Source of the DNA: Methanocaldococcus jannaschii DSM 2661
GTDB taxonomy: Archaea; AGJL01; Methanococci; Methanococcales; Methanocaldococcaceae
Direction of reading: 5' to 3'
DNA: 32,000 bases
NCBI RefSeq assembly: GCF_000091665.1
Contig: NC_000909.1
Span: 1,222,961 to 1,254,960, forward strand
In this document: piece after piece, positions 1,497-18,904 of the stretch
Position numbering within the stretch: position 1 is the stretch's first letter
Layout of the letters: the number at the start of each line of letters is the position of its first letter
Program-made: the position numbers and the translations under genes
Notes under the pieces: generated by a model
The model's database searches: none
Told to the model about the DNA's origin: nothing
The model's input: the letters and a program-made list of their open reading frames with translations, nothing else

Positions 1497-1970
1497 ATGA
1501 ATTTAATATTAACTCTACTCATAATTTTTGCCATAATTGGGCTTTTAATTTTAATTTTTGGAATTTGGCTGATAAAAAAACTTCTATTTCCAAAAAAGAA
1601 GCCAAAACCATATCAAGTTAGACATGGAAGCTCATCAAGTAAAAGAGGTTATGGAAGTCATGATGTTTATCATCACCATTATGTAACTAAAGATGTCTAT
1701 GTCCATGATTATGGCGATGACGACATTTATGATGAAAGAGGAAAAAAAGAGGGTGATAAAGATGATAGTTTAATAGATAAAGCCATTGCCTTTGGAGCTG
1801 GAGCAGTAACTGGTTATGGAGTAGCAGAATATGGTGAAGAGATTAAAGAAGAGGTTGAAGATATTGTAAAAGAGGGAGAAGATATAATTGATGATATTGT
1901 GGAAGAGGCAGAGGACTTTGTTGAAGATGTTGTTGATGACTTTGATAATGGAGGAGACGACGACTATTAA
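1497..1970 (+). CDS. Small membrane-anchored protein with a His/Tyr/Asp-rich middle and an extremely acidic C-terminal tail.
   Basis: It has an N-terminal TM helix ([24 protein letters not shown]), then an [21 protein letters not shown] segment, then a D/E-rich tail ([40 protein letters not shown]). An AGGTGA SD precedes the ATG and AT-rich TATA-like sequence lies upstream. Confidence 0.7.
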
Positions 1971-1986
1971 AGAGGAGGTGTTTTTT

Positions 1987-4900
1987 ATGAAAAAATTTGT
2001 TATTATTTTGACTATTTCGATTGCTGTCCTATTTGCTGGTTGTGTTTCAGAGGAAGGAAGTTATGAAGAGTCAAAAATATCTGAAAAATCTATATCATCA
2101 CCATTAGATATTGTTCCAAAATCATCTGAAAAAGTTGTATATACTAAAACAGAAGGATTTGTTGATTTATTGGGAGAGAATAGTGAAATAGTAAATGCAT
2201 ATAAGGAGTTAATTGGGAAGTATGGTTTAAGTGTGGATGATATTGAATACACAATCCAAGCAGACAATACTTATGTATTAAAGGGATATGGCTTAGATGA
2301 ATATAAATTCATGGACGAACTTGGCTTAGATTATAAAGAAGAAAAATATAATGGAGCAAATATGCTTATAAATGAAAATCACAATTATGCTGTTGCAAAA
2401 TACAAAAATTACCTTATTCATGGAAATACTGAAGATGTAAAAAGAGTTATAGACACAATAAAAGGGGACTATCCATCGATAACAGAGAAGAAGGAAATTA
2501 AGGACATGTTAAGTAAAGTAGATGACGATTATGTAATAGCAAATATCGGAAGAAATTATAAGGGGTATTATGGCGCTTTTATATACCTTAAGGGAAGAAA
2601 TGTAGAGTTTGATGTTGTTGCCGTATATAATGACGTAGATGATGCAAAAGAGCAGTATGAATATGTAAAAGAGGAATTAGAGGATGAATTAGATAATGGA
2701 AACATCAAAGATTACGATATAGATAGGGATGGCAATATAGTTGTAGCAAAGGTAATAATGAGTAAAGAGGAATTCTTAGGAGATTATGCTAACAAACTTG
2801 GTTTAAATTTTGGAAATGAAATAAAATACAATACTGAAAATGAATACAATACACAAACTAAAGAGAAAAGTGAATTTAACCACGATAATACCAACAAAGT
2901 TAATAAAAATATCAATCTTGAAGAGCCATATAATTTAATCCCAAATGTGTTTTGGGCGAGCTATGTGGATGTAGGAAAGTTTTCTAAAGTGGTGAAGGGA
3001 AAGGGCGTGTATGATGAGTTAAACAGTATATTAAAGTGCTATGGATTATCTCCAGATGATGTTGAGTTTTATATGAACTTAGAAACAGCCAATTTAATAA
3101 AAACAGATAAACTAACTGCTAAAGAATACTTAAAAAAATTGGGCTATAGTTACAATGAGGAATATTATGGTGGAGCTACTTTGTTAGTATATACTACAGA
3201 AGTATCTGATATGGTAGGCAAATTTGCAGCTACAAACTATAAAGGATATTTCATATTTGGATTAAAAGGAGGAGTTGAAAAAGTTATTGATGCTATAAAT
3301 GGAAAAAATAATTTGGTAACTGAAGATGAAAATATAAGAGAGATAATAAATGAAATGCCAAAAGGATATTTTGCATTCAAATTATACAATCAGTTTGATG
3401 CAGATGGAGGGGAATTTTATTATGATGAGGGAGATAAAATTGTAATTAAGGGACTTTGGATATGTATTGATGATGAATATGCTAAAAAAAGAAAATATAT
3501 TATAGAAAATGATTATGAAAACTATGGATATACAGATTATAATATTGAAGTGGATGGAAATAGAGTAACAACCACACTTACTATTGACAAAGATGAGTTT
3601 GGTGAGTATGATGGATACACTCTTGTAAGTTCTGATTGGATTGGATTGAAAAAACTTGAAAATTGTGAAAATGTAAATGAAGAAGAAGAAAACCAAATTA
3701 ATGAAGAGCAACAAACCAACGTAGAAAATGAACAACAGACCGAACAGCAGTTTGAAAATGAAGATAAAGAGACCAACACTTATGAATTACCTTTAACATG
3801 GAAAGAACTCGAAGTTGCAGGAATGGATGGAGTTATGTTCGACTTTGGAAATAAGAAAGTAACATTTGAAGATTGGAAATATAGCCCTTGTGAATTTAGA
3901 AATCCAATAATTATAGATGGAAATAAAATATGGTGTTTTGGATTTAGTGGAGGAGAGTATGGATATTTCACATATAACGATAATATGGGATTCGATGCCG
4001 ATGTTGATGACATAATTTTAATAGAAATGCCTTACAATGTAAAAGCAGTATGTGATGACTTTTATGGAGCGGGGTGGTTTATAGAGGATGATAATGGAAA
4101 GTTGCATCATGTAATATTTGACTGTCCAAAAGAAACAATAATGGATAAAACAGGAAATGTTGAAATTGATTTAGCTAAAATTAAAAAAGATGTTGTGGTA
4201 GCAAATGTGGATGTTGATGAATTGATGGCTGGAGCAGAGGATAATAAAAATAATTACAAAATAGTTATTGGTTGGAAAGGAAATAAACTTTACTTAATTA
4301 CTATGGAGAAAGATAAGTTTGAAGATTGGGCTTATAACAGTAAATATGAAGATGGATTTGATGAACCATTCCCACCTGTGCAAATTAAGGAGTTTGAGTT
4401 TAATGGTAATATAATAGATGCAAGAAGTGATTTTAGGAATTATATAATAGTGGCAACAGAAAATGGGCTTTATATAATAACTGTTTATAAAAGAGAGCCA
4501 GATGAGTTTAAAATAACTGACTCTTTAAAAACAAATATTGAATGTTATGCTTTTGATACAGGTTCTGGATTATTGGTATATTATGATGGAAGTAAGGTAT
4601 ATTATACAGATATAAAAATTAAATCTGAATCAGATAATTCGGATATTTACTATATTGCAAGAAACTATGAAGGTGGCTTAAATATTGATGGAGTTACTGG
4701 ATTGTCAATATGTCATAACTACAATTGGCTTGGGACACAAGTGGAAGTGGCTGGAGATGGATGGATAAAAACCTACAATATAGAGTTTGAAGCTAAAAAA
4801 GATGCAGAAGGGAACTCTGTATATGACGAAAATGGAAATTCAATATATATAGTTAAATTCGAGCCAAAAAATGTATATTACGATGAAATTTATGATAAAT

Positions 4901-5034
4901 ATTATAGCATAAGTGTCCCATTTGCTGGAAAGTATATTTATAGAGGAGATAGTGGGGATTCAAAAAATGGACGTGTAGAGTTTAGGGTTTATACAACAAA
5001 CAACAAGCTCTATCTATTTGGAACTAATTGGTAA
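1987..5034 (+). CDS. Large secreted lipoprotein (~1015 aa) with two tandem ~245-aa repeat modules, a Q/E/N-rich linker and a beta-rich C-terminal domain.
   Basis: The start is re-placed at ATG 1987 (MKKFVIILTISIAVLFAGC, a lipobox-like FAGC) behind a GGAGGTG SD; the track start at 1888 overlaps the previous gene. The internal repeat spans 2101..2820 vs 2930..3653, e.g. YKELIGKYGLSVDDIEY / LNSILKCYGLSPDDVEF and DVKRVIDTIKGD / GVEKVIDAINGK. The linker NEEEENQINEEQQTNVENEQQTEQQFENEDKE lies at about 3654..3779. Confidence 0.8.
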   Translation: MKKFVIILTISIAVLFAGCVSEEGSYEESKISEKSISSPLDIVPKSSEKVVYTKTEGFVDLLGENSEIVNAYKELIGKYGLSVDDIEYTIQADNTYVLKGYGLDEYKFMDELGLDYKEEKYNGANMLINENHNYAVAKYKNYLIHGNTEDVKRVIDTIKGDYPSITEKKEIKDMLSKVDDDYVIANIGRNYKGYYGAFIYLKGRNVEFDVVAVYNDVDDAKEQYEYVKEELEDELDNGNIKDYDIDRDGNIVVAKVIMSKEEFLGDYANKLGLNFGNEIKYNTENEYNTQTKEKSEFNHDNTNKVNKNINLEEPYNLIPNVFWASYVDVGKFSKVVKGKGVYDELNSILKCYGLSPDDVEFYMNLETANLIKTDKLTAKEYLKKLGYSYNEEYYGGATLLVYTTEVSDMVGKFAATNYKGYFIFGLKGGVEKVIDAINGKNNLVTEDENIREIINEMPKGYFAFKLYNQFDADGGEFYYDEGDKIVIKGLWICIDDEYAKKRKYIIENDYENYGYTDYNIEVDGNRVTTTLTIDKDEFGEYDGYTLVSSDWIGLKKLENCENVNEEEENQINEEQQTNVENEQQTEQQFENEDKETNTYELPLTWKELEVAGMDGVMFDFGNKKVTFEDWKYSPCEFRNPIIIDGNKIWCFGFSGGEYGYFTYNDNMGFDADVDDIILIEMPYNVKAVCDDFYGAGWFIEDDNGKLHHVIFDCPKETIMDKTGNVEIDLAKIKKDVVVANVDVDELMAGAEDNKNNYKIVIGWKGNKLYLITMEKDKFEDWAYNSKYEDGFDEPFPPVQIKEFEFNGNIIDARSDFRNYIIVATENGLYIITVYKREPDEFKITDSLKTNIECYAFDTGSGLLVYYDGSKVYYTDIKIKSESDNSDIYYIARNYEGGLNIDGVTGLSICHNYNWLGTQVEVAGDGWIKTYNIEFEAKKDAEGNSVYDENGNSIYIVKFEPKNVYYDEIYDKYYSISVPFAGKYIYRGDSGDSKNGRVEFRVYTTNNKLYLFGTNW

Positions 5035-5750: not shown

Positions 5751-6809
5751 ATGAGGAAGATTATTTTAATATTTTTTATATTTTTAATACTCCAAAATAT
5801 CTACGCTTATGAAAAAATCTATGATGTTAATCATGTTTGCTACTACACATTAACATCTGTTGAACTTCAAAAATTTGTAAAAACTGCAGAGATTATAACC
5901 CCCTTAAACGCAGATAACAAAACAACAATTACAAAAGATACAATATTAGTTGGCAATCCAGAAGAAAATCCTTTAACAAAAAAATACATTGGATTCTTTA
6001 AAATAAAAATAAATAAAACCTTTCCAGGAAAAAATAAAGGGATTATTGAAAAACAGATAATAAATGGACATACAGTCATTCTATTAGCTGGTTCTGATAT
6101 ACAGGGAACTTATGCATCAATAATAACATTTGCTAATCTAAACGACATTCCAGAAAACCCAATTATATGTGAAACCTCAAACAAAGTTAATATTTACAGC
6201 ACGTCTCTTAATAGTGAATATTTTAGAGACTTTATTGAAAAAAATATATTAACACCAAAAGAAATTGAAAAAGTTAAATCCCTATCTTATAAATTAAAAG
6301 GAAAGGATAAAAAGGCTACTATTGAAAATATAGCAAAGTGGGTAGCAAACAACATAAAGTATGATTATGATAAGTGTAAAAAAATAGAAAGTGGAAAATT
6401 TAGCTGGGATGAGTACAATACCCCATCAGAAACGGTAAAAACAAAAAAAGGAGTTTGTTTAGATTACGCCACATTAACCTCCGCTCTATTGCTAAATGAT
6501 AATATAATCCCTTATATGTTAGATGTTGCTTTATATAATACCTCATCATTAAAAATCTCATCCTATCATGCTTCAGTTGCTGTGAAAATAGATAATACAT
6601 ACTTTGTTATAGACCAACAGCCATATTTGATTCCAATTAACGAATATACTGCCCAAACATTTGAAGACAATTTGAGAATCGCCAGCATTGTAATGTTTAG
6701 AGTTGTAAAAGAAAGGGATGGCATAAAATTAATAAAAGAAAAAGAAGTTCCAGGAATTGCAATATATGGGGATTTAATAAACCTCTTAGAAATGAGATTT
6801 AATAACTAA
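5751..6809 (+). CDS. Secreted transglutaminase-like (papain-fold Cys-His-Asp) superfamily protein.
   Basis: It has a signal peptide (MRKIILIFFIFLILQNIYAY). The core motif KKGVCLDYATLTSALL (G-x-C-x-D-[YF]-A) is followed by SSYHASVAVKIDNTYFVIDQQ, which supplies the His and Asp. The 3' end overlaps the convergent peptidase gene by 24 nt. Confidence 0.7.
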   Translation: MRKIILIFFIFLILQNIYAYEKIYDVNHVCYYTLTSVELQKFVKTAEIITPLNADNKTTITKDTILVGNPEENPLTKKYIGFFKIKINKTFPGKNKGIIEKQIINGHTVILLAGSDIQGTYASIITFANLNDIPENPIICETSNKVNIYSTSLNSEYFRDFIEKNILTPKEIEKVKSLSYKLKGKDKKATIENIAKWVANNIKYDYDKCKKIESGKFSWDEYNTPSETVKTKKGVCLDYATLTSALLLNDNIIPYMLDVALYNTSSLKISSYHASVAVKIDNTYFVIDQQPYLIPINEYTAQTFEDNLRIASIVMFRVVKERDGIKLIKEKEVPGIAIYGDLINLLEMRFNN

Positions 6810-7550
6810 TTCTATTACTTTAAAAATCAACGGAAAAGGAGAGACAATATACAAAATATAAGAAAGACATATGAAAACCAAAAAAGGGAGTTGAGGAGTA
6901 ACCCAAACTTTTCCTTTGTATGTTTTTTTCTCTTCCTTTTCTTCATTTATATTGGGAATTAAGGAAAGGTTTTCATCATCCCCCATAATGGTCTCAAATT
7001 TTTTAACTTTGTCTATATCTTTTTTTAAAGCTATAAACAATAATGGTAAATTCTTTAACTTTAATCTTTTATGATTTCCATTTTTTAGGTTTATTAATAA
7101 GATAAATATACAGTAGGGGATGACAAAAAGTATTGCATTTAAAAAAATAATGAAGGTAAAGAACATCCCTTTTAAATAACTCAGCCCCATTAAAAATTTA
7201 CAATCTCCTCCTCCCATAAAATTAAGGTAGTATAAAAAAATTCCAATCAAATAAAATACTAAAAAAGATAACGCAAAGTATGATTTAAACAAAATAAATG
7301 ACAATAAAAATAAAAACACTCCAATATAAACTAACTTATTAAACTTTTCATATCTAACAGATAGGGTAATAAATAAAACAGCAAAAATCTCAATAAAAAA
7401 TAGTAATAAACTTTTATTATATAGGAGATGAATAAAAACTCCTACCCAGAGCATAGATATCCATAAAAAGTCAGTAACCTCTCTTTTTCTCCAATCCTCA
7501 ACTGCCCCATATATTGAGCAAATCAACCCATATAAATAACCCAAATCCAT
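6786..7550 (-). CDS. Archaeal A24-family prepilin/preflagellin peptidase (EppA/FlaK-like).
   Basis: Polytopic membrane protein. The first acidic motif is near the N-terminus (AVEDWRKREVTD) and a second GxGD-type motif (NFMGGGDCKFLMGLS) follows. It is the last gene of the pilus-like operon. Confidence 0.8.
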   Translation of the reverse strand: MDLGYLYGLICSIYGAVEDWRKREVTDFLWISMLWVGVFIHLLYNKSLLLFFIEIFAVLFITLSVRYEKFNKLVYIGVFLFLLSFILFKSYFALSFLVFYLIGIFLYYLNFMGGGDCKFLMGLSYLKGMFFTFIIFLNAILFVIPYCIFILLINLKNGNHKRLKLKNLPLLFIALKKDIDKVKKFETIMGDDENLSLIPNINEEKEEKKTYKGKVWVTPQLPFLVFICLSYILYIVSPFPLIFKVIELVIKSHF

Positions 7551-7562
7551 ACTTCCACCAAA

Positions 7563-8102
7563 TTAATTAATGTTCCAGCTTTGATATTCAAAAGAATTAT
7601 TTAAAGATGAATAAAACATCCTTGGAGTCGTTATAAAAATATCTGTCAAAACAAATCCCTTAGAAGATATTCCTTTTTGTGGATTAAAAATTGTTATGTT
7701 GTGATTAAAATCTTCATCATGCAAAGAAACATAAAGCATTGGTGAATTACCATAAATGACATTGAAATAGCTATTTTTGCAGGATTCATTTAGGATGAGA
7801 TAAGAAGTGTCACTAAAATTGTTTATACTCTCATTAAGATTATAGTTAAGAATTACATCTGAATAGTTATTTAACAACTCAACTTCAATTGGCGAAGTTG
7901 TATCATTAAAGACAAAATTACCGCTTTCATTAATTGTTATAGTATAGTTTTTATATGAACTTTTAACATATAATATTCCAGAAAAGCTTCCATTCATTGA
8001 CATGTTTATATATGTTACATTCTCAGAGTTATTGTAATATCCACTTGTATTTATAAAGGATACATTTTCTGCCAATGAGTTGTTAAAAACATCCTTTGCC
8101 AT
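7563..8102 (-). CDS. N-glycosylation-sequon-rich extracellular domain protein, probably the C-terminal part of the upstream prepilin-like gene.
   Basis: 179 aa with 16 N-x-S/T sequons by my count. It has no signal peptide or TM and no SD before its ATG. It overlaps 8051..8704 by 52 nt in another frame. Confidence 0.55.
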   Translation of the reverse strand: MAKDVFNNSLAENVSFINTSGYYNNSENVTYINMSMNGSFSGILYVKSSYKNYTITINESGNFVFNDTTSPIEVELLNNYSDVILNYNLNESINNFSDTSYLILNESCKNSYFNVIYGNSPMLYVSLHDEDFNHNITIFNPQKGISSKGFVLTDIFITTPRMFYSSLNNSFEYQSWNIN

Positions 8103-8704
8103 AATAAATATAGCAAAATCCCTTCTTTTGATACATTTAAGATATAATAATATAACGATTTTTCATTGGAATTATTATAAATGGTTTCATTAAGTATCAA
8201 ATTTCCAAATCTATCATAAACAAATACATTAACATAACTTCCAGTTATATTAAAACTCCCAGTAACTGAGCCATTTTCAGAGATATTTAACAATAGATTC
8301 TTGCTGAATACATAATTTGATACGTTTAAACTTCCGTTAAATGCCCCTCCAAATCCATAATTTGATATGTTATAAGAAAAATTTCCATTGTATAGTGAAA
8401 AATTGAATGTTAAGTTTTTTGCCTCATATCTTATATTAGAAAATATTATTTTTTTGTAATTAATTTCAATGCCTTCATCTTTATAATTATTTTTTAGCAT
8501 GTCTAAATTTTTACTTAAATTTGAGTTTGAAGTTAAAGAGTTTATTAAACAGCTTTCTATAGAGTTTTTGACATCTTTCATTTTAAATACTGTTAAATAA
8601 GAGCCATCAGAAGTATAGGAGTTAAAACCAAGTAAGAAAAACAATATTAATCCAATGGATAAAATAACTCCACCAATAATAAAAAACTGCCCTCTTTTAT
8701 TCAT
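8051..8704 (-). CDS. Prepilin-like protein with a class III (type IV pilin-like) signal peptide.
   Basis: The ATG at 8704 forms an ATGA overlap with the upstream stop. The N-terminus MNKRGQ/FFIIGGVILSIGLILFFLLGF has a short basic leader, G-Q, then a hydrophobic helix. The remainder is rich in sequons. The last ~25 codons (LLYLLWQRMFLTTHWQKMYPL) look non-native. Confidence 0.7.
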   Translation of the reverse strand: MNKRGQFFIIGGVILSIGLILFFLLGFNSYTSDGSYLTVFKMKDVKNSIESCLINSLTSNSNLSKNLDMLKNNYKDEGIEINYKKIIFSNIRYEAKNLTFNFSLYNGNFSYNISNYGFGGAFNGSLNVSNYVFSKNLLLNISENGSVTGSFNITGSYVNVFVYDRFGNLILNETIYNNSNEKSLYYYILNVSKEGILLYLLWQRMFLTTHWQKMYPL

Positions 8705-9066
8705 CTCCACCATAATATCAACCTTAACTTATAAAAATTTACTGAGGTGTTATTCTCAAATATAAAATTTCTCTCAACAACAACTCCATTTTTTGCATCA
8801 GAATAAATTAAATTCCCATTTTTGTAAATCTCAAATCCATAACCTACATTACTTGGCAGTTCAATTTTTTTGTAGAGGGAGGAGATATTTTCAAAATCCC
8901 CCTCCTCAATATGTGCAGAGTATAATGCATTATATCCAATAAATTCTAAAGAAAGATTATAATCAAAATTCTGGGACATTACCAAATAAGAAAAAACTAA
9001 TATAACCATAATACCTGCAATTGTAGCTTCTAAGATTCTAATAAACCCTTTATTGTTAAGTATCAT
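8701..9066 (-). CDS. Small prepilin-like protein.
   Basis: The N-terminus MILNNKG/FIRILEATIAGIMVILVFSYLV has a basic leader, Gly, then a hydrophobic helix with a Glu near +5/+6. ATGA overlap with the upstream gene. Confidence 0.65.
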   Translation of the reverse strand: MILNNKGFIRILEATIAGIMVILVFSYLVMSQNFDYNLSLEFIGYNALYSAHIEEGDFENISSLYKKIELPSNVGYGFEIYKNGNLIYSDAKNGVVVERNFIFENNTSVNFYKLRLILWWR

Positions 9067-9617
9067 CTTCCCACTTCTAAAATGCCGTAGTATTTGAGAG
9101 TTATGTTTTCATTTTTATCAACTATATAGAACGGAACTTCAAACAACTTATTACAACTAATACCTTGGAATTCCCTATAGTTGATAGAATAGTTTTTTGG
9201 ATATATTATCTCAATATCCCCATACTCTCCTTTTTTGTATTTTGCAGAAATATTATAATGCCCTATAATTCTTAAAAACTCATGATTTTTTGTTATAATG
9301 AATTCATCCTTAGAAGGGGAGTATGCAATAATGTATGAGCCATTCAAGTTTTCAAGATACTTTATTAACTCTCTACTTTCAGATGTGTCTTTGAATACAA
9401 ATCCCTCAATAACATATCCTATTTTATTAACTTTAAAATTAAAAATTAAATCTCCCTTTGAAATTGAATAATTATATTTTAAATCATTATAATACATTAA
9501 AAACTCTTTTTTAGCTTCTTCAATATCATAAACACTATGTAAATTAACGGTTTCAGATATAACATAGACACATACAATTAAAAACATGGCTGTTGCAAGT
9601 AAATAGTCCAATTCCAT
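9063..9617 (-). CDS. N-terminally membrane-anchored hypothetical protein of the pilus-like operon.
   Basis: A single N-terminal hydrophobic helix (LLATAMFLIVCVYVI) is followed by a beta-rich ectodomain. The gene is tightly packed between the TadC-like and pilin-like genes. Confidence 0.55.
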   Translation of the reverse strand: MELDYLLATAMFLIVCVYVISETVNLHSVYDIEEAKKEFLMYYNDLKYNYSISKGDLIFNFKVNKIGYVIEGFVFKDTSESRELIKYLENLNGSYIIAYSPSKDEFIITKNHEFLRIIGHYNISAKYKKGEYGDIEIIYPKNYSINYREFQGISCNKLFEVPFYIVDKNENITLKYYGILEVGR

Positions 9618-9620
9618 TTA

Positions 9621-11408
9621 TTATCCCCCAATGTAAAATTTAAACAGCATATATCCAACAATCAACATTAGTAATATATGCTTTATTCCAGCAATAATCG
9701 ACCTCTCAGTAAGTATTCCTAAAGAAGCTCCAGAGAATATGGAATATATCAAAATTCCTTGGAATAAATAGTTTTTATAAAATTCAACACTCAAACCATG
9801 AATATTTTTTAATAATGTTGGCAGGAGGGAATGAACCATAATGTACGATGTCCCAATGTACAGGAAAAATGAGAGATAGATGACAACCACATATATAAAC
9901 TGCCTTGCACTTATCTCCCTTTTCATTTCACTTAACTTGTATGCATGAACCGTAACTGAGGTTAAGATATCCTTTACATCCCCACCAGAGACGGCACATT
10001 CTTTTAATATTGAGGCGATTCTTTTTGCAATTAAAGATTTTTCTGTTCTTTCTAAATCGGCAAATACTTCATTCACAGGCCTTCCCCAAGACATCTGAAT
10101 AGCCATTTTTTTAACAATTTTTGTTAAAGGCCCATAGTTCGTTCTTGCACAGACCTGCATCGCTCTAATTATATCCATACCACTTCTCACAGCCATGGTT
10201 AAATCATTTAAAAATATAGGGTAGTATCTCTCCTTTTGATTTTCAATAATAAAATGCCAATAGCTTGTTAAAATAAAAGGAAGTATAAGAAACAAAATTC
10301 CAAACATTAAGAAATCAGTTCCATGGAACTTAAAAATTGATTTTCTAATGAAAAACAACATAAAAGAAATTATAGAAAGCATCCAAAAAAACAAAGTAAT
10401 AAAATGAACTGGTTTCCATTTAAATTTCATTTTTATGCCTTCTATCTCTGGTTCATCAAATTCTTTTAAAACATCTAATAAAGAAACATTTAATTTGAAG
10501 TCTTTTGGTAGTATTCCATAAACCAATCCCATAAAAATTATTGATGCTATTGGAACCCATAAATAAAAGGTCAGTGGAAGTAGCTTTGGGTCTCCAAAAA
10601 GTGATGCGGTTTGTAAAATTGCACTAATGGATGAAGCTACAGGAACTGTCATAACAACAAAAAGAGGAATCATACCACATGCTATTACATAAAACTCAGA
10701 CAGTATCTCAACTTTTTCAATAGCTTCAAATAATTCCAACTTTCTATCTTCCATCAATCGTTCATATATTTCATGAAAAATGTTTTTCATCTCAGCCCCA
10801 ACTATTAAAGAGGCTACTATATTATAATAAACTGAAGACAGCTTTTTACTTGGTGTTATCCTTGCTCTTCTTAAAAATGTTGTTATAATGTCATAATTGA
10901 ATACCTTCGTATCCTTAACTATTTCTTTTGCCTCTTTACTCATCCCTCCATAAATATCCTCTTTTGATAGAGAAGTAAATATCTCCACTACAGGAATGTT
11001 TGCTGAAGATAAGGCAGAGATAAAGGCAAACGCATAAGGTAAATTCTCATCTATACTTTTAGCCTTTTCTTCAGCTAAGACATAAGGATATAAGACCCCA
11101 ATAAGAATAACAATAAAAATCCCTCCAATAAGCCCAAAAATTGCATAGAATATATTAAATACTATTAAAAAAATTATGAAGATAATTAACCCTAATATTA
11201 TAGATGTTAAAAATACTACAGGCAGATATGTGGAAGAAACTGCATTCATACCTGCTTTTAATAAAATTTCATCAAATTTCTCATCCTCTATTTTAAAAAG
11301 TTTCATAGCCAATTTATAATACCTTAACTTTAAATTGGCAAAAAAATCCAATTCAATCACCTTTATGATATTCTTTATACTCACATATCTTTTTAACAAA
11401 TTCTTCAA
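9621..11408 (-). CDS. TadC/FlaJ/PilC-like polytopic membrane platform protein (T2SSF-type).
   Basis: ~580-595 aa with about 9 TM helices separating two helical cytoplasmic segments. It lies immediately downstream of the secretion ATPase. The real start may be the TTG at 11351 (GGTGAT plus 4 nt, just after the ATPase stop) or the ATG near 11306, rather than 11408. Confidence 0.7.
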   Translation of the reverse strand: MKNLLKRYVSIKNIIKVIELDFFANLKLRYYKLAMKLFKIEDEKFDEILLKAGMNAVSSTYLPVVFLTSIILGLIIFIIFLIVFNIFYAIFGLIGGIFIVILIGVLYPYVLAEEKAKSIDENLPYAFAFISALSSANIPVVEIFTSLSKEDIYGGMSKEAKEIVKDTKVFNYDIITTFLRRARITPSKKLSSVYYNIVASLIVGAEMKNIFHEIYERLMEDRKLELFEAIEKVEILSEFYVIACGMIPLFVVMTVPVASSISAILQTASLFGDPKLLPLTFYLWVPIASIIFMGLVYGILPKDFKLNVSLLDVLKEFDEPEIEGIKMKFKWKPVHFITLFFWMLSIISFMLFFIRKSIFKFHGTDFLMFGILFLILPFILTSYWHFIIENQKERYYPIFLNDLTMAVRSGMDIIRAMQVCARTNYGPLTKIVKKMAIQMSWGRPVNEVFADLERTEKSLIAKRIASILKECAVSGGDVKDILTSVTVHAYKLSEMKREISARQFIYVVVIYLSFFLYIGTSYIMVHSLLPTLLKNIHGLSVEFYKNYLFQGILIYSIFSGASLGILTERSIIAGIKHILLMLIVGYMLFKFYIGG

Positions 11409-12938
11409 AATTTGGTTTTGTTTTACATAAATTCCTCAAAAATTCTGCTCTACTATGAAGTTCATTAATAATCTCTTTTTCTGAAATTCCAATGAACTCA
11501 GCTATTCTTCTTAACAAATAACTTTCTCCAGAAAATTCAAATGTATCATCTTCAGGATTCCACCTAAAAACATCATGTAATATAATATCATCAATTTTTG
11601 GGTCGTATTCAACAATCTCAGTTATACTCTTAGTTCTTCTAACAAATCTTCCTTTATAAATCAATCTAACCTGCATACATATGGCATTTAGTTGTTCAAG
11701 CATAATCTTTGGAATGTTCATTGGTTCAGCATTCAACCTCCTTATAACTGCCTCTGGGGATTTTGCGTGTATCGTTGATAACGCCAAATGTCCTGTAGTT
11801 ATTGCTTGAAATAATATCTTCGCCTCCTCACCTCTAACCTCTCCAACAATTAAATAATCTGGTCTTTGCCTTAAAGCCGCTTTTAATAAATCCATCATAG
11901 TTATTTCATATTCTTCTCCACCGAATCCACTTCTTGTAGTTCCAGCAATCCAGTTTTCATGATACAACCTAATTTCTGGAGTATCCTCAATAGATACGAT
12001 TTTCATTTGAGGAGGGATGAAAAGAGAGAATGCATTTAAAAGGGTGGTTTTTCCAGTAGCTACCTCTCCAGCAACCATAATAGAATTTTTATATTCAATG
12101 AGTAACCAAAGATATGCAAGCATCTCTGGAGAAATACTCCCATATCTTATTAAATCTGTTGGCAATATAGGAGTGTGTGTGAATTTTCTTATTGTAAATG
12201 TTGAACCATATCTGAGATATCCCTTCCAAGGGTTACATTTAGCCTGCTACCATCTGGGAGAGAACCATCCACTATTGGATTAGCCAATGTTAAAGATTTT
12301 CCACACCTTTGGGCTAAGGATATACAAAACGAGTCTAATTCTTCATCAGTTTCAAATTTTATATTTGTCTTTAAATGTTCGTATTTTCTATGAAACACAT
12401 ACACTGGCTTTCCAACACCTGTGCAACTGATATCCTCCAAATTCTCATCTTTCATAAGAGCATCTATTTTCCCATATCCAATGAGGTATTTAATTAAAAA
12501 GTAAATTAACTTATGTCTTGTTACATCATCCAATGTTAATTTTAAATCGTCAAAAATTTCTTTAATTTTTTCTTTTAAATAATCCTCCAACTTTTCTTTG
12601 TCTATTTCTTCAACTGGAACATCCAATAATGCCTGAACAACTTTTCTTAGTTTTAAAAATAGTTTTATCTCTTCTTTTGTTAGAATTGGCTCAATAACAA
12701 TATACTTTTTTGTTTTTTCTACATTATCATAACCAATTATAATCTCCGCCATACCAATCGTCATTTTTTCATAAATTTCAAGATTTTTAATTTCTTCATA
12801 AATCTCTTTTAAAGCATCCAAATAACTTTCATTTTCCTCTCTATCCTTTTTTACATTTTTGTCTAATTTAAAAATTTTTTTAATGTCTATATTTTTGTTA
12901 AAATTAAAATTTTCACCAAATATTTTCTTTATTACCAT
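11353..12938 (-). pseudogene. Type II/IV secretion-system ATPase (FlaI/TadA/VirB11-like) split into two ORFs by a single-nucleotide frameshift near 12207..12220.
   Basis: The upstream ORF ends ...PDGSRLNVTLGRDISDMVQHLQ*. The next frame reads YGSTFTIRKFTHTPILPTDLIRYGSISPEMLAYLWLLIEYKNSIMVAGEVATGKTTLLNAF, with Walker A GEVATGKTT, Walker B DYLIVGEVRGEEA and His box TGHLALSTIHA. The ATG at 12938 follows GAGTGAT plus 4 nt. Confidence 0.85.
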
Positions 12939-12943
12939 AAATA

Positions 12944-13315
12944 TCACTCTATATAAATCATATAGGTGTTATTGACCTTTTTACATGAGATTTTAGAAAT
13001 GTCAGAAATCTCATTTTTAAAGAATCTAATGTTGTTATTAAACTTATGAACATAGGTTTTATTTTGGAAAATTATTGTAAATGAATTATTTTCAAATATG
13101 ACCTTGCAATTTAGGTTTATTTTTTTGTAGAGAGTTATATTCCCCTCATTTGCTAAAACTACTGCATTCATAACTTCTGAAGTTATTTCCCTATCAACCT
13201 TGTCAATATACCTATATTTTCCAATTTCAATTAATTCAGAGTAAATTGTAGAGGTAAATATAATAACCAAAAATGAAACTGCCATAAGAAGAATGGATTT
13301 TGCAATAATATGCAT
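12944..13315 (-). CDS. Small N-terminally anchored protein, a possible minor pilin-like component.
   Basis: The N-terminus is MHIIAKSILLMAVSFLVIIFTSTIY. The stop overlaps the ATPase start region and the gene is packed within the operon. Confidence 0.5.
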   Translation of the reverse strand: MHIIAKSILLMAVSFLVIIFTSTIYSELIEIGKYRYIDKVDREITSEVMNAVVLANEGNITLYKKINLNCKVIFENNSFTIIFQNKTYVHKFNNNIRFFKNEISDISKISCKKVNNTYMIYIE

Positions 13316-13317
13316 AT

Positions 13318-13815
13318 TTATCCCATCAATAAGCTATAAACATAAACCTTTGAGTTATTAACATAGAAATGCCTCAAATTATCGGAGTAGTTTATTGTTA
13401 TATTTCCTCCAAACTCATAAATTGATAGATTTGTATATTTGATATAATAAACATTTGGACATTGAGCGGAGATGTTGTAGATAAAGATATATAATGTTCC
13501 TTTTTCAAGATAAACATCATAATCAATTCCTTCAATGGTTGTGATATTGAATGATACATACTTTGTCCCATTAGAAATTTTAACATTATTTTCTTTTAAA
13601 GTAATCTTAGTTTCATCAAATGTCCTTTCTGAATCTACACCACTGTATATTACATCATTTATTAGATTTTTTATAATTTCTATACGATTTTTTTCTTTTT
13701 CTTTTGAAACCTGATTTAAAGTGGTGTCTATTATGTTAATTCCCCATTCATAGGCAATAATTGATAATGCAAAGATTGTAGTTAAAACTAAAAGAGTAGA
13801 TAGATATGTATTCAT
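13318..13815 (-). CDS. N-terminally anchored pilin-like or pilus-associated protein.
   Basis: The N-terminus [24 protein letters not shown] resembles the hydrophobic core of archaeal pilins, but no clear [KR]G cleavage motif is present. ATGA overlap with the upstream gene. Confidence 0.5.
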
Positions 13816-14750
13816 TTTCTTCCCCTTTTACTCAAATAAATAGCCAATCCTATTATCCCAAAACCTATAATAATTCCAATAAAGCTTAATAAATAATTAC
13901 TCATGAATTTCGTAGAGTTTTCAGAGATTTTATTATTTTCTAATATTATTATATCATCAATTGTCGAATTATAAAGTTTTACATACAAATACGGCTCTTT
14001 TAAATAGGCAGTTTTATTTGAAACAAAAACATTATATTTTCTATCAAATGTAAATGTCCCTTTTGGGTTTTTGATAGTGTAAGATGTCCTATTTTCTGTA
14101 ATTGATGTAACATTTGCTACTGCATATCCATAAAATTCTGAACTATTGAAGAACTTTGTATAATAAATATTACAAATTGAGGAGACATTATCTAAATAAA
14201 TCAAACTTATAACTTTTTTATCTGTTTTATTATACTCTAAGATATATTTTCCATTCGTCTCAGCCAATTTATTTTCCGCCACTATGATTATTTTCACATT
14301 ATTTGGTGGAATCCTCATTCTAATTGGTCCTCCAAGGGAGCCAACATAATCTTCAATTTGAGGAATCGTTATGTTTATTGTGTAATTTATTTTATCAACA
14401 CTAAAATTGTAGTAGAATATAAGAGAATTTGAAGAGTTTCTATATAGTAAATTAGAATAGTTGTATCCATATATTTTCTCATACAAAATAATTCCAGCGG
14501 ATTTTATGTGATATGGATTGTTTGTCCCATTTATTACATCTTTAACATAGGCAGTATTGTTTTTTACAATAATATATAGAATTTCGTTGTAGTTTATATT
14601 ACTGTAGATTATATTATTGTGAGAAATATTTGAACTTGAGATGTTTTTAGAGGTTGTGTTTGAAATATCTGAAATATTCTCAGCATAAGTAAAATAAACA
14701 GAGAATAATCCAAAAATACATAAAATTAACAAATAAATTGCCTTTTTCAT
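13812..14750 (-). CDS. Type I membrane or surface glycoprotein candidate (signal peptide plus C-terminal TM anchor).
   Basis: It has the signal peptide [23 protein letters not shown] and the C-terminal anchor [27 protein letters not shown]-x-S/T sequons are dense, e.g. [20 protein letters not shown]. Confidence 0.65.
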
Positions 14751-14762
14751 ACTATCACCTTT

Positions 14763-15485
14763 TTAACTAATTTCAAATGTTATTTTTTTCTCTACGTCTC
14801 CATATTTCGTTGAAGCAATGATTTCAAATATTATTGTATTTGGAACTTTTGTATTATTTATTAGGATGTAATAATTTATATCTGTTTTAGAATTCCCCTT
14901 CAATAAAAAACTCTCTGTTGGACAATTTAAATCAATTAAATCAAGCAAATTTGAAGTATTCAATGCGTTTCCATTAGAAGCAGCAGCATAGAATAGTTTT
15001 CCATTTTCATCATAAAATTTCATTGAGGAATAATACACTGTTCCATTAAAATAAACATATTGTCCGCTATAATTGTAAGGGTTTTCATCTCTATCCAACA
15101 ATAAATTGTTACTGCTATCATCTATATTTACTGATGCCCAGGAAACATTTGGAGTTAAGCAGTATATTCTTGTATTTACATTTAAATCTTCATCAATATT
15201 GTTTATAAATTCTAATTTTATTGTTTGAATAAATCGCTCCTCTGGGTTATTTGTTATCCGGGAATCTCCATTTAAATCAAGATTTGTAAAATAGTATGTT
15301 TCAATTGTAGAAATTTCAATAGGTTTTATGATATTCCCTATCGATGACTTTATTGTTGGGGTTATTTTTTCGGTAGTGTCGCTAAATACCTTGTTACTCC
15401 AAGCGTAATAAGCTGCACCGATGACAATTGCAGTTCCTATTAATAATAACATTGTAATTATTAGGGACATTCCCGACTTGTTCAT
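14763..15485 (-). CDS. Archaeal type IV pilin-like protein, first gene of the operon and a candidate major subunit.
   Basis: The N-terminus MNKSG/MSLIITMLLLIGTAIVIGAAYYAW has a short basic leader ending in Gly and then the flagellin/pilin-type hydrophobic helix. A GGTGAA SD lies upstream. Confidence 0.7.
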   Translation of the reverse strand: MNKSGMSLIITMLLLIGTAIVIGAAYYAWSNKVFSDTTEKITPTIKSSIGNIIKPIEISTIETYYFTNLDLNGDSRITNNPEERFIQTIKLEFINNIDEDLNVNTRIYCLTPNVSWASVNIDDSSNNLLLDRDENPYNYSGQYVYFNGTVYYSSMKFYDENGKLFYAAASNGNALNTSNLLDLIDLNCPTESFLLKGNSKTDINYYILINNTKVPNTIIFEIIASTKYGDVEKKITFEIS

Positions 15486-15698
15486 TAAACTTCACCATTA
15501 AGTTTATGTAAGTGTTTATGTATATGGGCAATAAAGTAAATTTTATGATATTTAAGATTATCTTAACTATAAAAAATTTATTAATTATTTGATTATTGTA
15601 GTATGATATTTTAAATATAAATGCGGTATTATGGCATATATATTTAAACATTATTATTACATAGCACATTACAATATATAAAATTAGGTGTCACATTT
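15486..15698. promoter_or_regulatory. Divergent intergenic promoter region between the pilus-like operon (-) and the surface-protein genes (+).
   Basis: A 213-bp very AT-rich spacer with several TATA-like boxes, e.g. CAATATATAAAA about 20-30 nt before the + gene SD TAGGTG. I could not map the exact boxes or transcription start sites. Confidence 0.4.
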
Positions 15699-17357
15699 AT
15701 GAAATTCAAATATATCGTATTATTATTTGCACTGTCTTTAGCATTAATCACAGTTAATGGCTTAGAGATAAAGGATATTGATTACAGCGATAGCTCGCAA
15801 TATCTAATAATAACAGTAAGTAATCCAGATAATAACATTAATGCAAATATATCAATAATTGGATATATAGACAACAAAATAGATACGCAAGTGGAGATGT
15901 TTAATTACTCAATCCCAAAATATTCTCTAATGTTTATTAGAAAGAAGATGGTGTTTAATGAAAAAGGAGTTCATACAGTATTTGTAACAATAAAAAGTAA
16001 TAATATAACCTATACTTTTTATAAAAAAATAAATATAACCTATGCATATAACAGCAAAGTTCCAGTTCCTGAAGAAGAAGTAACTAAAAAGATAGAGATA
16101 GAGGGTTTAGAGTTTGAAATATGTCCCTACCCATATCCTCCTTTTTACGATTTTGTATATGTAACTATAAGAAACAACGATTATGTTCCTCACTATGTTA
16201 ATATTTCATTTACGGCATCTTTACAAGGAACTTATTACATCATTAAAGACAACAAAATAATAAAATCAAATCCTCCGTCAAATGGCTTAATAATAAAATC
16301 TTGGACGCCTAACGTTTATGTTCCTCCAAAATCCAAAATTATAATTCCCATAAAAGTTAATTTTTACTATTCTGGAAAATACACGATAACAGTAAAGGCA
16401 GTTAGTGATAATCATTATTCAACTGAAAAAACAGTTAAAGGTAATACTGTAATTTTAAAATCTCTATTTGGAGATGAGATAAAGGTCTATAATGTAGAAA
16501 TAGCTTGCCCACTGTATGTATATAATGTTAGATGTGAGGATGAATATGGGGACTATGCATATTCAAACTGGTTTGATGTTGATGTGAATAATACAGTTGA
16601 TTATGATGTTTATGGAACTCTACAGGTATTTCTATGTAAAAAAGAGGGAGATAATTATCTCATATTAAATAATAAAACAATAAATAAATACTTTTTAGCA
16701 AAAGAATTTAATGATGGATACTCAATTCCAGTTAAACTTAATACATCAGCGTTAAACCCTTATGATGAAAATTTCACAATATTTGTGTTATGTAAAACTG
16801 GAAATATGGAAAGTTTTTATTATAAAACATTTACTAAGCCAATAAAGATAAATAGTTTAGAAGTAAAGAATTATCCAGAACATTACTATTTTGTTGATGA
16901 AAGCATATTCTATGATGTTTATGTTAATGTAACAAATAACTTAAATAAAAAGATATATGCGAATATATCGATAAAGGATATTTATAATAAAACCTACTCA
17001 AAAGAAGTGGAGCTTAACAAAAGTTGCGTAAATATTATTAAATTTAGTGGATTAAAAATTAATGCAAAAGATTTATCTCACGATGGAAAAATTAAACTCA
17101 AATTTATAGTTACTGCTATAACTCCACCTTATGAAAAATACTACATCATTAAGAAAAATATAAGTATAAATTTATCTTTAATTCCAACTCCACCAGTTTA
17201 TCTATGCAGTAACTTAAATGATGAGATATTTGTTGGATATCCTCAAAATTTATCTTTTAGCTTAAAGAAAGTCGTTGGAAGATGCGTTGAGACAAGAGTA
17301 TATATAACAGTCCCAGACGATATTAAAAAATATACTATTTTGAAGAGAAGTATTTAA
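15699..17357 (+). CDS. Secreted multi-domain beta-sandwich (CARDB/adhesin-like) repeat protein.
   Basis: It has the signal peptide [22 protein letters not shown] recurrent ~100-aa pattern is present (I-x-I/V...Y-x-V-x-V-x-N...N-x-S), e.g. [39 protein letters not shown] and [21 protein letters not shown]. Many sequons. Confidence 0.65.
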
Positions 17358-17448
17358 AAATTGGAACAATGGAAGAGATTCCTGTAAATATAAAAACGCT
17401 ATTTTTAAAGGAATACACGGCCCTATCTACATACACGTTGCTACAAAT

Positions 17449-18162
17449 ATGGGAGTTAGAGAGTGTGTAGTAACAAGGATTATTAAATCAAGACCAATAA
17501 TTGCTTGTGAGGATGTATATCTGCACAATTACACTGTCTTTATAAAAATAAGAAATAGAACGCAGGGATTTGTGAAGTATGAGCCAATTGTTGGATATCC
17601 TGTTAATGTTACAGTTTCTCTAAAAAGTGCTGTTCCAGATTTAAAAGATATAGAAATCTGGGCTTCTGCAATGGATGAAAATGGCAGATTAATAAACTGT
17701 AGTAAAAAGAAAACCATCGATATTTACGGAAATTATAGAAAAGTTAATCTTGAAATTTTATTCAATGACTCATTAGAGGGATATTTAATAATATATGCTA
17801 AAACTGGGGAGGCAGTTATTCCTCTATATTATAAACCAATTATGGTCACCTATCCGGTAGTATTTGGTTTAGAATACAATCCTTCAGACCCTTGGGCAAA
17901 TCTAACACTATCTCATAATTATCAAGTTCCTATAAAGGTTAATGCTACAATAGGTAAATATTCCAAAATAATAACAATCTACCCATATAAAGAGACAAAA
18001 GTTCCGTTTTATGTTGGGAAAGATAGAAACAATATAACTGTAAGCATTGAACTACTTAATAATATATCAACGATAAAAAAATTCAAAAAAACATTTTATT
18101 TCAAAAAATTAAATAAAATTAAAACTTCTATTAATGAAACAGTAGTTAACAAATATAATTAA
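17449..18162 (+). CDS. Continuation-like beta-sandwich repeat protein, possibly the 3' portion of 15699..17357 separated from it by frame changes.
   Basis: It shows the same domain pattern ([33 protein letters not shown]). It has no signal peptide and no SD before the ATG. All three frames are open in turn across 17327..17450. Confidence 0.5.
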
Positions 18163-18208
18163 TATAACAAACGAAACTAAAATATACAACCAAACTGAAA
18201 AAGGAAAA

Positions 18209-18904
18209 ATGACAAATAAAACCAGAAAGGAAACAAATGAAATTAAAAATAATATCACCCTACCACCAAATATTAAAACTGAGGTAAATAGAACTAGTAA
18301 ATATGATTTTACAAATCTCTCTAAAGATTTAGAAATAGTATATGCTCTTATAAAAATTACAGGTTTCGATGAATATCTACCATTTAATATTGAAAACTTA
18401 AATAAAATATTCATTAAAGAAAAAATATCGCCCTACCCATATTTGCTAAATTTAATAAAGGATTTAATAATCCTATTCGTTATTGGATTGATTATAACAA
18501 TAATCGGCTTATTAATGTATGAACCAACACGTCCAAAGGTAATATCTATAATTGCATCCATTCTCTATAAATTAAAAATTAAAGAAAAACCTAAACCTAA
18601 GAAAAAAGAAACCATAAAACTACCAAAACCTCCAAAAATCTATATATCTGATGTAATTTATTCATTAGGGGACACAGTAAGAATTGAAATATCTTCTGAG
18701 ATAGATATTGGCAATAATTTGTATATACTATCCCCAACAAATAAAAAATACAAAATAGAATTAATAAAAACTGGAAAAAATAAATACCTTGGATTATTCA
18801 AAATACCAGAGAATGAAGTTCCAGGGCAATATTTCATTATATATAAACCAGAAAACTTATCAATTGGAGGGTTTTTAGTAGTAGATATTAAAAAGGAGAT
18901 GTAA
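18209..18904 (+). CDS. Membrane protein with a central TM helix and a C-terminal small beta-sandwich domain.
   Basis: It has the TM segment LIILFVIGLIITIIGLLMY, then a lysine/proline-rich spacer KIKEKPKPKKKETIKLPKPPK, then ISDVIYSLGDTVRIEISS...VPGQYFIIYKPENL. A T7 run at 18914..18920 follows the stop. Confidence 0.55.
   Translation: MTNKTRKETNEIKNNITLPPNIKTEVNRTSKYDFTNLSKDLEIVYALIKITGFDEYLPFNIENLNKIFIKEKISPYPYLLNLIKDLIILFVIGLIITIIGLLMYEPTRPKVISIIASILYKLKIKEKPKPKKKETIKLPKPPKIYISDVIYSLGDTVRIEISSEIDIGNNLYILSPTNKKYKIELIKTGKNKYLGLFKIPENEVPGQYFIIYKPENLSIGGFLVVDIKKEM

Follow-up and report, generated by a model that had tools for sequence, protein, structure and literature searches.

Makarova et al. 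(2014, Extremophiles; PMC4158269) described in section 12 and Fig. 9a of their paper an "unusual putative secretory system" of Methanocaldococcus jannaschii, similar to type IV pili (T4P) and made up of pilins, a protein like FlaJ and an A24 peptidase like FlaK. It was without FlaF, FlaG, FlaH and pilins of the Methanococcus maripaludis type, and most of its proteins were common to a few methanococci only. A census of archaeal pili by Makarova, Koonin and Albers (2016; PMC4858521) listed in its Table S2, restricted to "complete" ATPases, one Clade_2 assembly ATPase each in M. fervens, FS406-22 and M. vulcanius, and scored M. jannaschii as being without Clade_2. In the tree of the same work the M. 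fervens ATPase has a long branch and groups weakly (0.51) with nanoarchaeal ATPases; the two together are sister (0.74) to the archaellum clade. The Epd pili of Methanococcus maripaludis, which represent Clade 1, are characterized there by the pilins EpdA-E, the EppA peptidase with nine transmembrane segments (TM), two TadC genes, DUF2341 adhesins and a MinD/FleN ATPase.

We have analyzed a stretch of 32,000 nucleotides of the genome of M. jannaschii DSM 2661, a deep-sea methanogen (contig NC_000909.1, positions 1,222,961 to 1,254,960). The whole stretch is called here the window and all the coordinates are counted from its first nucleotide. On the minus strand, at 6786-15485, there is an operon running from MJ1282.1 to MJ1291 that is almost certainly the system of PMC4158269; the published description carries no locus tags, and we infer the identity from the fact that the archaellum and Epd-type loci are the only others in M. 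jannaschii. An earlier note on this DNA, made without database searches, had taken the operon for something novel. The locus is rather a published in silico prediction, ordinary in kind and already catalogued, with its orthologous ATPases listed as Clade 2 in PMC4858521, and it is still uncharacterised. Our analysis makes it likely that M. jannaschii has in this operon a third T4P-like system for the assembly of filaments, distinct both from its archaellum and from pili of the Epd type (Clade 1).

The operon consists of ten genes, designated here g1 to g10 in the order of transcription (MJ1291 first, MJ1282.1 last). From the 3' to the 5' end they are MJ1282.1, MJ1282.2 plus MJ1283, MJ1284, MJ1285, MJ1286, MJ1287 plus MJ1288, MJ1288.1, MJ1289, MJ1290 and MJ1291. 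The earlier note had counted twelve, but the two split pairs are frameshift artefacts of the reference, since the genes are intact in re-assemblies and in orthologs. We compared the window with four independent Logan assemblies of DSM 2661, 99.94-99.96% identical to it (one of the contigs was seen in 16 samples), and found one additional base at 12212, in the ATPase gene, and another at 8119, in g9. In the neighbouring gene, which codes for a secreted protein, there are two more such bases (17334 and 17416), and in each of the four cases the window has an undercall in a run of 2-4 identical bases. When the base at 12212 is restored, open reading frames (ORFs) of 252 and 270 amino acids (aa) join as a single ATPase of 528 aa; that at 8119 joins ORFs of 220 and 179 aa into one protein of 383 aa. 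Both are single genes in M. lauensis (L009), in a metagenome-assembled genome (MAG) of Methanococci (L005) and in a Methanocaldococcus-like contig (L010). The tightly packed array noticed previously is indeed there, with junctions of -32 to +12 nucleotides, true ATGA overlaps in two places (g2/g3, g7/g8), ribosome-binding sites resembling GGTGA upstream of most of the starts, and a GC content of 27.8% within a window of about 30%. Such an array is far beyond chance. The gene order is kept in other Methanocaldococcaceae genomes, at least three of them, with identities of 42-92% and with the peptidase gene g10 missing from L010.

The assembly machinery was searched with profile models, which confirmed the T2SSE, T2SSF and Peptidase_A24 families of Pfam in the operon. 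The assembly ATPase g5 (MJ1287 plus MJ1288, 11353-12938) is broken in the window at 12212, so the T2SSE match (E=1.3e-31) fell only on the C-terminal ORF of 270 aa (11353-12165), and on reading the sequence the conserved motif GRDIS(R)YGSTFTIRKF turned out to be cut by the frameshift at the junction of the two ORFs. The intact protein has the motif FTIRKF (248), a Walker A box GEVATGKT (291), a Walker B box LIVGEVRG (363) and the His box (383). Its best solved relative is the GspE of A. fulgidus (2OAP, 399 bits), followed by the FlaI of S. acidocaldarius (310) and by CpaF (157). Among the NCBIfam models the top one was FlaI, with 438.8 bits and under the equivalog cut-off of 550, and the TadA-family model gave 158.7 bits against a cut-off of 373. 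The platform protein g6 (MJ1286, 9621-11384) is a polytopic protein of the TadC/FlaJ type encoded by a single fused gene, with 562-587 aa depending on the start codon. Its ORF (9621-11408) has multiple hydrophobic segments and matches T2SSF (E=6e-27) in two stretches, scores far under the cut-offs of the UpsF and ArlJ models, and is 79-92% identical among Methanocaldococcus. The last gene, g10 (MJ1282.1, 6786-7550), codes for an A24 prepilin peptidase of 254 aa, of the short FlaK-like form (Peptidase_A24 E=3.8e-13, 50.2 bits with a cut-off of 26.5; Arc_PepC_II 27.2 bits, under cut-off; FlaK equivalog model 81.8 with a cut-off of 330). Candidate catalytic residues are Asp19 (VEDWRKRE) and Asp116 (GGGD). 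The operon is therefore self-contained, as had been proposed, having an ATPase, a platform protein, a peptidase of its own and several pilin-like proteins of class III type. Pfam and NCBIfam gave no match to FlaC/D/E, FlaF, FlaG, FlaH, FlaX or archaellin among the ten products, and the former claim that archaellum-specific genes are lacking holds.

Some of the assemblies are one base shorter than the window in an A5/T5 run of the platform gene, at 10783. This variant was seen in L002 (ERR9765778) and, on several contigs, in the fragments P0177 and P0178, and it divides TadC into products of 209 and 377 aa. It could be either a real loss-of-function variant present in some cultures or an assembly error.

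The first gene, g1 (MJ1291, 14763-15485), codes for a pilin-like protein of 240 aa with an N-terminus of the class III type, MNKSG/MSLIITMLLLIG (MNKSG/MSLI), in which residues G5, S7 and L8 are invariant across 14 homologs. An AlphaFold2 model built from the alignment of 14 sequences (predicted local distance difference test, pLDDT, 79) has an N-terminal helix at residues 3-41 and an all-beta head at 56-239. The comparison of this model with the PDB by Foldseek retrieved only generic immunoglobulin (Ig)-like and macroglobulin sandwiches, with TM-scores of 0.3-0.37, and the sequence search of the PDB with the g1 profile gave nothing meaningful. Members of the family are rare. When 1.84 billion representatives were searched exhaustively with the profile, nine proteins came up at E<=0.001, six of them at E<=1e-10; the word-based searches retrieved proteins of Methanocaldococcus and Alkanophagales-like proteins only, and a scan of metagenomes added just four more Alkanophagales-like contigs. 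MJ1291 is likely to be the main subunit of the filament, since its gene comes first, no accessory protein is better conserved, and a helix combined with an Ig-like beta head is predicted for it. Upstream of it, the AT-rich divergent intergenic region (15486-15698) contains a GGTGA ribosome-binding site 7 nucleotides ahead of the g1 start and presumably holds the promoter of the operon.

The remaining products are secreted or anchored by their N-terminus. The protein recognized earlier as carrying a signal peptide and being anchored at its C-terminus is g2 (MJ1290, 13812-14750). It has 312 aa, a Sec-type signal peptide, two hydrophobic segments (1-24 and 282-309), the second of them a transmembrane anchor followed by the basic residues KRGRK, and 19 N-glycosylation sequons (6.1 per 100 aa). 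It had no Pfam or NCBIfam match and no Alkanophagales counterpart, and is confined to Methanocaldococcus loci, being missing from L010. The next gene, g3 (MJ1289, 13318-13815), codes for a pilin-like protein of 165 aa without a leader: its Met1 aligns with position +1 of the Alkanophagales homolog (L011:7004-7555), which does carry a class III leader (MFRAEG/VSQVVSALLL), and no in-frame start codon is possible upstream. All four Methanocaldococcus orthologs begin with MN(T/I)Y, and hhalign aligned residues 6-148 with 12-167 of the homolog with a probability of 92%. Judged from these N-termini, g3 would need no prepilin peptidase. Its single-sequence AlphaFold2 model was poor (pLDDT 48), an N-terminal helix followed by strands with nothing usable past the helix. 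Hydrophobic N-terminal helices anchor also g4 (MJ1288.1, 12944-13315; 123 aa, 47-67% identity across the Methanocaldococcus loci), with a possible short leader MHIIAKS/ILLM, and g7 (MJ1285, 9063-9617; 184 aa, MELDYLLATAMFLIV), with no canonical class III motif. The small pilin-like g8 (MJ1284, 8701-9066; 121 aa) starts with MILNNKG/FIRILEA and has a conserved C-terminal LILWWR, its syntenic partner in Alkanophagales ending in VTWWRR. Finally, g9 (MJ1283 plus MJ1282.2, 7563-8713) is a pilin-like glycoprotein of 383 aa, broken in the window at 8119, that starts with MVEMNKRGQ/FFIIGG, has 29 sequons (7.6 per 100 aa) and is found as a single gene of 385 aa in the orthologs.

The class III motifs are canonical in g1, g8 and g9 and are kept in their orthologs. 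The N-termini quoted in the earlier note (MNKSG/MSLIITMLLLIG, MNKRGQ/FFIIGG and MILNNKG/FIRILEATIAG) are all present, and its assignment of class III signal peptides to these three genes stands. A fourth such motif is possible in g4, g3 is leaderless and g7 has none of canonical form. From what is known of Methanococcales pilins and archaellins, subunits of this kind are expected to be extracellular N-glycoproteins. The density of sequons was 2.5-7.6 per 100 aa in g1-g4 and g7-g9 versus 0.2-0.8 in the ATPase, TadC and the peptidase, which fits extracellular glycoproteins. None of the accessory proteins reaches the threshold of any curated family of Pfam or NCBIfam, in agreement with what had been anticipated.

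We have examined the distribution of the system beyond the reference strain. Close relatives of the ATPase (76-94% identity) were found only in Methanocaldococcus, and beyond them the identity is at most 53%. TadC orthologs were recovered from FS406-22 and M. vulcanius, and g1 orthologs from FS406-22 and M. fervens, so the Clade_2 entries of Table S2 correspond to the ATPase of this operon; M. jannaschii was scored without Clade 2 apparently because its ATPase is split in the reference and was evidently missed. The table labels the orthologous ATPases as Clade 2, and the tree puts that of M. fervens on a weakly supported long branch beside the archaellum clade. A scan of genome contigs with the ATPase gave four loci, M. 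jannaschii itself not among them, of which L005 is syntenic. The nearest outgroup, P0007 (53%), is located in L011 and L012, where we found, as in L015, the order 255 aa, 183 aa, 135 aa, ATPase, two TadC genes, 203 aa, 131 aa and 358 aa. The shorter contig L016 carries the beginning of the same order, and one member of the group bears the annotation Candidatus Alkanophagales. The GC content of these loci is 50-58%, and they encode the platform protein by two genes versus the one fused gene of Methanocaldococcus.

With profiles built from the four Methanocaldococcus-type loci, each of the accessory genes took its syntenic Alkanophagales partner as top match. The E-values, which are relative to a set of 11 proteins, were 1.4e-31 for g1, 7e-7 for g3, 4.4e-7 for g9, 0.002 for g8 and 0.014 for g7; for g4 the match to its positional counterpart was not significant (E=0.76) and no sequence similarity was detected. 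By hhalign, g1 reached a probability of 99.5% with the first gene of the Alkanophagales loci, g3 the 92% already mentioned and g9 72% with the last gene of their core, and g7, g8 and g4 were not significant. On these comparisons g1 and g3 have firm homologs in Alkanophagales and g9 a probable one, and for g7, g8 and g4 the homology is weak or absent. The Alkanophagales counterparts of g4 and g8 matched DUF7266 (E=3.9e-6, just under the cut-off) and DUF7288 (E=5.8e-5, under the cut-off), respectively, and a literature search on these two families found no relevant paper. There was no counterpart for g2 or g10 in the Alkanophagales loci, g10 being present in three of the four loci of Methanocaldococcus type. 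Bathyarchaeota (L013) and Thermoplasmata (L014) also have relatives of the ATPase, at about 50% identity. These were considered and set aside, as they lie in plain loci with the ATPase and two TadC genes and no accessory genes in common; similarity of the ATPase alone does not carry the accessory set with it.

From these comparisons the structural proteins are seen as fast evolving and sparsely distributed, yet an eight-gene core is common to two unrelated thermophilic lineages. The order of the eight genes is kept between genomes with 28% and 50-58% GC, indicating a functional module under selection. The earlier description of the subunits as largely lineage-specific, with no recognisable counterpart, has to be revised, given that the same order is present in Alkanophagales MAGs with detectable homologs of MJ1291, MJ1289 and MJ1283. 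An origin from a mobile element was also considered and rejected: the window has no tRNA gene, and the scan of the flanking ORFs gave no integrase match. The Alkanophagales homologs are fully adapted to their high GC, so any transfer must be old. The neighbourhoods of the operon differ between M. jannaschii, M. lauensis and L010, and according to the 2016 census the Clade 2 ATPase is absent from M. infernus and Methanotorris (PMC4858521), which together indicates patchy retention or relocation. Upstream of the Alkanophagales core, and separated from it by a transporter cluster of the CbiMNQO type, there is a protein of 530-602 aa (L011:1269-3077 and L015:183-1775) with an archaeal Pilin_N N-terminus, MFKKDKG/LSPVIAVLLMVAITV, that may be a large pilin or an adhesin of the same machine.

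By analogy with the known archaeal type IV pili, the system would work as follows. The pilin-like proteins would be inserted in the membrane by their N-terminal hydrophobic helix, and the FlaK-like A24 aspartyl peptidase g10 would trim their short basic leaders, in g1 after G5, in g8 after G7 and in g9 after G8 or Q9. A hexameric ATPase of the FlaI/GspE family, acting on the fused TadC/FlaJ platform, would spend ATP on raising the subunits from the membrane, and these would stack by their N-terminal helices into a surface filament. MJ1291 would be its main subunit, and g3, g4, g7, g8 and g9 could be minor pilins that prime or tip the filament or anchor its base. MJ1290, a predicted type I membrane glycoprotein, may be an addition specific to the lineage. 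N-glycosylation is probable for the exposed parts. As in other archaeal pili, the system probably serves for attachment in hydrothermal habitats, be it to surfaces or to other cells. The case for a third filament system rests on the core families with intact motifs, the class III N-termini, the predicted structure of g1, the sequons, the tight coupling of the genes, the synteny and the lack of archaellum accessories, and the published in silico descriptions agree with it (PMC4158269; PMC4858521).

The surroundings of the operon were also inspected. Divergently from g1, on the plus strand at 15699-18904, there is a gene that appears in the window as three ORFs in three frames and codes for a large secreted protein, with about 1068 aa in the Logan gene call. 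It has a Sec-type signal peptide, no C-terminal anchor and no Pfam domain. Its ortholog of 1019 aa in M. lauensis is collinear with the three ORFs and has the same position beside the operon. The protein is a possible accessory component, adhesin or cargo of the pilus-like system. Apart from 17334 and 17416, a fifth frame difference lies between 18162 and 18209, as deduced from frame arithmetic and from the collinear M. lauensis alignment, so that within about 11 kb (8119 to around 18200) five frame errors break three genes. On the other side, MJ1282 (5751-6809, plus strand) codes for a secreted transglutaminase-like protein (DUF553 E=2.9e-48; a weak S_layer_C match, E=4e-6) that is convergent with the peptidase gene, their 3' ends overlapping by 24 nucleotides. 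Surface peptidases that belong to the transglutaminase family associate with T4P loci in Methanococci (PMC4858521), and by this analogy MJ1282 could be linked to the pilus-like system, although it is only a neighbour with a putative connection. The operon is flanked by genes for biotin synthesis and fumarate hydratase on one side and by unannotatable secreted proteins on the other. Farther out, a protein of 1048 aa (1888-5034, plus strand) shows a lipoprotein-like start in its interior (MKKFVIILTISIAVLFAGC) and gave no Pfam match, and near its gene three small ORFs without matches occupy 218-1970. Taken with the operon, they amount to about 19 kb of unannotatable genes in one island.

Several observations weigh against the interpretation of a third pilus-like system. 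No filament, transcript or processed protein has been reported, and the literature search with the locus tags MJ1282 to MJ1293 gave no relevant paper, confirming for the searchable literature the absence of experimental work presumed before. As to the main subunit, the structural search of the PDB with the g1 model returned no solved pilin or archaellin, g1 stays under the threshold of all the pilin models (the UpsA N-terminus, with E=0.007), and neither g1 nor any other product of the operon matches Pilin_N (PF07790) at E<0.1. At 240 aa, g1 is moreover large for an archaeal major pilin, and the real one could be encoded elsewhere, compare EpdE/PilA. The missing leader of g3 and the missing cleavage motif of g7 add to this. 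Disrupted genes, in the reference and in other assemblies (the TadC frameshift of L002), may mean that the system is dispensable in culture. It would be quite improbable, to our judgement, that the locus is in decay and no longer functional, its ATPase and one pilin-like gene being split, in spite of the frameshifts at 12212 and 8119 and of the TadC frameshift that some assemblies have in the A5 run at 10783: those of the window are undercalls of short homopolymers missing from the four assemblies of the same strain and from all the orthologs, three more such differences in the neighbouring gene speak for errors of the reference sequence, and the catalytic motifs are all intact. A pseudogene origin of the split ATPase and g9 was rejected on the same grounds, and we give the whole hypothesis of decay hardly any chance. 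The same very low probability was given to a pilus for DNA uptake or cell-to-cell transfer. Type IV-like pili do serve natural transformation in some methanogens, and this precedent is what favours the idea. The operon and its flanks, on the other hand, encode no DNA-binding, translocase or nuclease components, and nothing in the sequence is specific to DNA.

A filament that rotates or serves motility, divergent but related to the archaellum and with an ATPase that would be the closest lineage to FlaI, is very unlikely. It would explain that FlaI is the best NCBIfam model for the ATPase (438.8 bits), that the peptidase is FlaK-like, and that in the tree of PMC4858521 the M. fervens ortholog and the nanoarchaeal ATPases are sister to the archaellum clade (0.74, 0.51). 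However, this position is that of a weakly supported long branch, a separate ATPase of the archaellum clade is listed for M. jannaschii in the same work, the FlaI score remains below 550, the best solved relative is the non-archaellar GspE of A. fulgidus, and there is no FlaH, FlaF, FlaG, FlaC/D/E, FlaX or archaellin family. Less improbable, and still distinctly unlikely, would be a short pseudopilus or surface-assembly device, comparable to the pseudopilus of type II secretion or to the bindosome of Sulfolobus, that places or releases the protein of about 1068 aa or MJ1290. Six or seven different helix-anchored proteins with no obvious small major pilin among them would fit such a device, the gene of the large secreted protein adjoins the operon divergently in both M. 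jannaschii and M. lauensis, and there were secondary NCBIfam matches to the bindosome proteins BasE and BasF. These matches are far below their cut-offs (201 versus 1000 for BasE, 24 versus 1300 for BasF), the locus has no substrate-binding proteins with class III signals, and both the large secreted protein and MJ1290 are missing from L010 and from the Alkanophagales loci, where the core is kept. We consider it unlikely, finally, that Methanocaldococcus and the alkane-oxidising Alkanophagales share an old separate T4P-like lineage, with an ATPase standing beside the archaellum motor, an Ig-like head on the pilin MJ1291 and a leaderless MJ1289 that bypasses the peptidase. If this were true, archaeal filaments would gain a new structural class, which might throw light on the origin of the archaellum from pili.

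A third T4P-like system, which we favour, would matter in several ways. M. jannaschii is a model hyperthermophilic methanogen and has three T4P-like machines, of which the archaellum is the only one studied in this organism. Learning what the third machine makes would extend the catalogue of archaeal surface filaments and of the mechanisms of attachment at hydrothermal vents. The correction of the gene models turns the ATPase and MJ1283/MJ1282.2 from fragments into intact genes and explains the Clade 2 scoring of 2016. The eight-gene module in common with an unrelated archaeal order gives comparative leverage to find the roles of the subunits.

Compared with the description of 2014 (PMC4158269), where the system was confined to a narrow methanococcal group, we find a homologous core in Alkanophagales and a set of ten genes. 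Among other systems there is a resemblance to the euryarchaeal Clade 2 T4P, represented by the PilB3-C3/PilA adhesion pili of H. volcanii, the PilB4-type loci, which have pilin sets of their own, and the A. fulgidus GspE (2OAP): the orthologous ATPases are listed as Clade_2, the GspE of A. fulgidus is the best solved relative, the PilB4-type loci (PMC4858521) also combine the ATPase and TadC with several class III pilin-like genes, and the Alkanophagales counterparts come near the thresholds of DUF7266 and DUF7288. The operon differs from them in that g1 has no match to the Pilin_N or PilA families, TadC is fused, there is a peptidase of its own, and the ortholog is in the tree of PMC4858521 an isolated long branch beside the Nanoarchaeota, outside the Clade 2 subgroups. 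With the archaellum it has in common a homologous ATPase, platform and peptidase, FlaI as the top NCBIfam model and subunits with class III signal peptides, whereas its three machinery proteins are under the equivalog cut-offs and archaellins, FlaC/D/E, FlaF, FlaG and FlaH are lacking. The Epd pili of Methanococcus maripaludis belong to the same taxonomic order and are likewise T4P-like, with several minor pilins around the machinery, but the ATPase orthologs of the operon fall outside Clade 1, its peptidase is a FlaK-like protein of 254 aa versus the 9-TM EppA, its TadC is a single fused gene, and it has no DUF2341 or MinD/FleN ATPase. Bacterial Tad/Flp pili are similar in having an ATPase, a TadB/C-like platform, a dedicated peptidase of A24 type and pseudopilins. 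No secretin, TadZ, TadD, TadG or Flp families were found by Pfam among the products of the operon, its ATPase scores 157 bits with CpaF versus 399 with the A. fulgidus GspE, and it is archaeal in every component.

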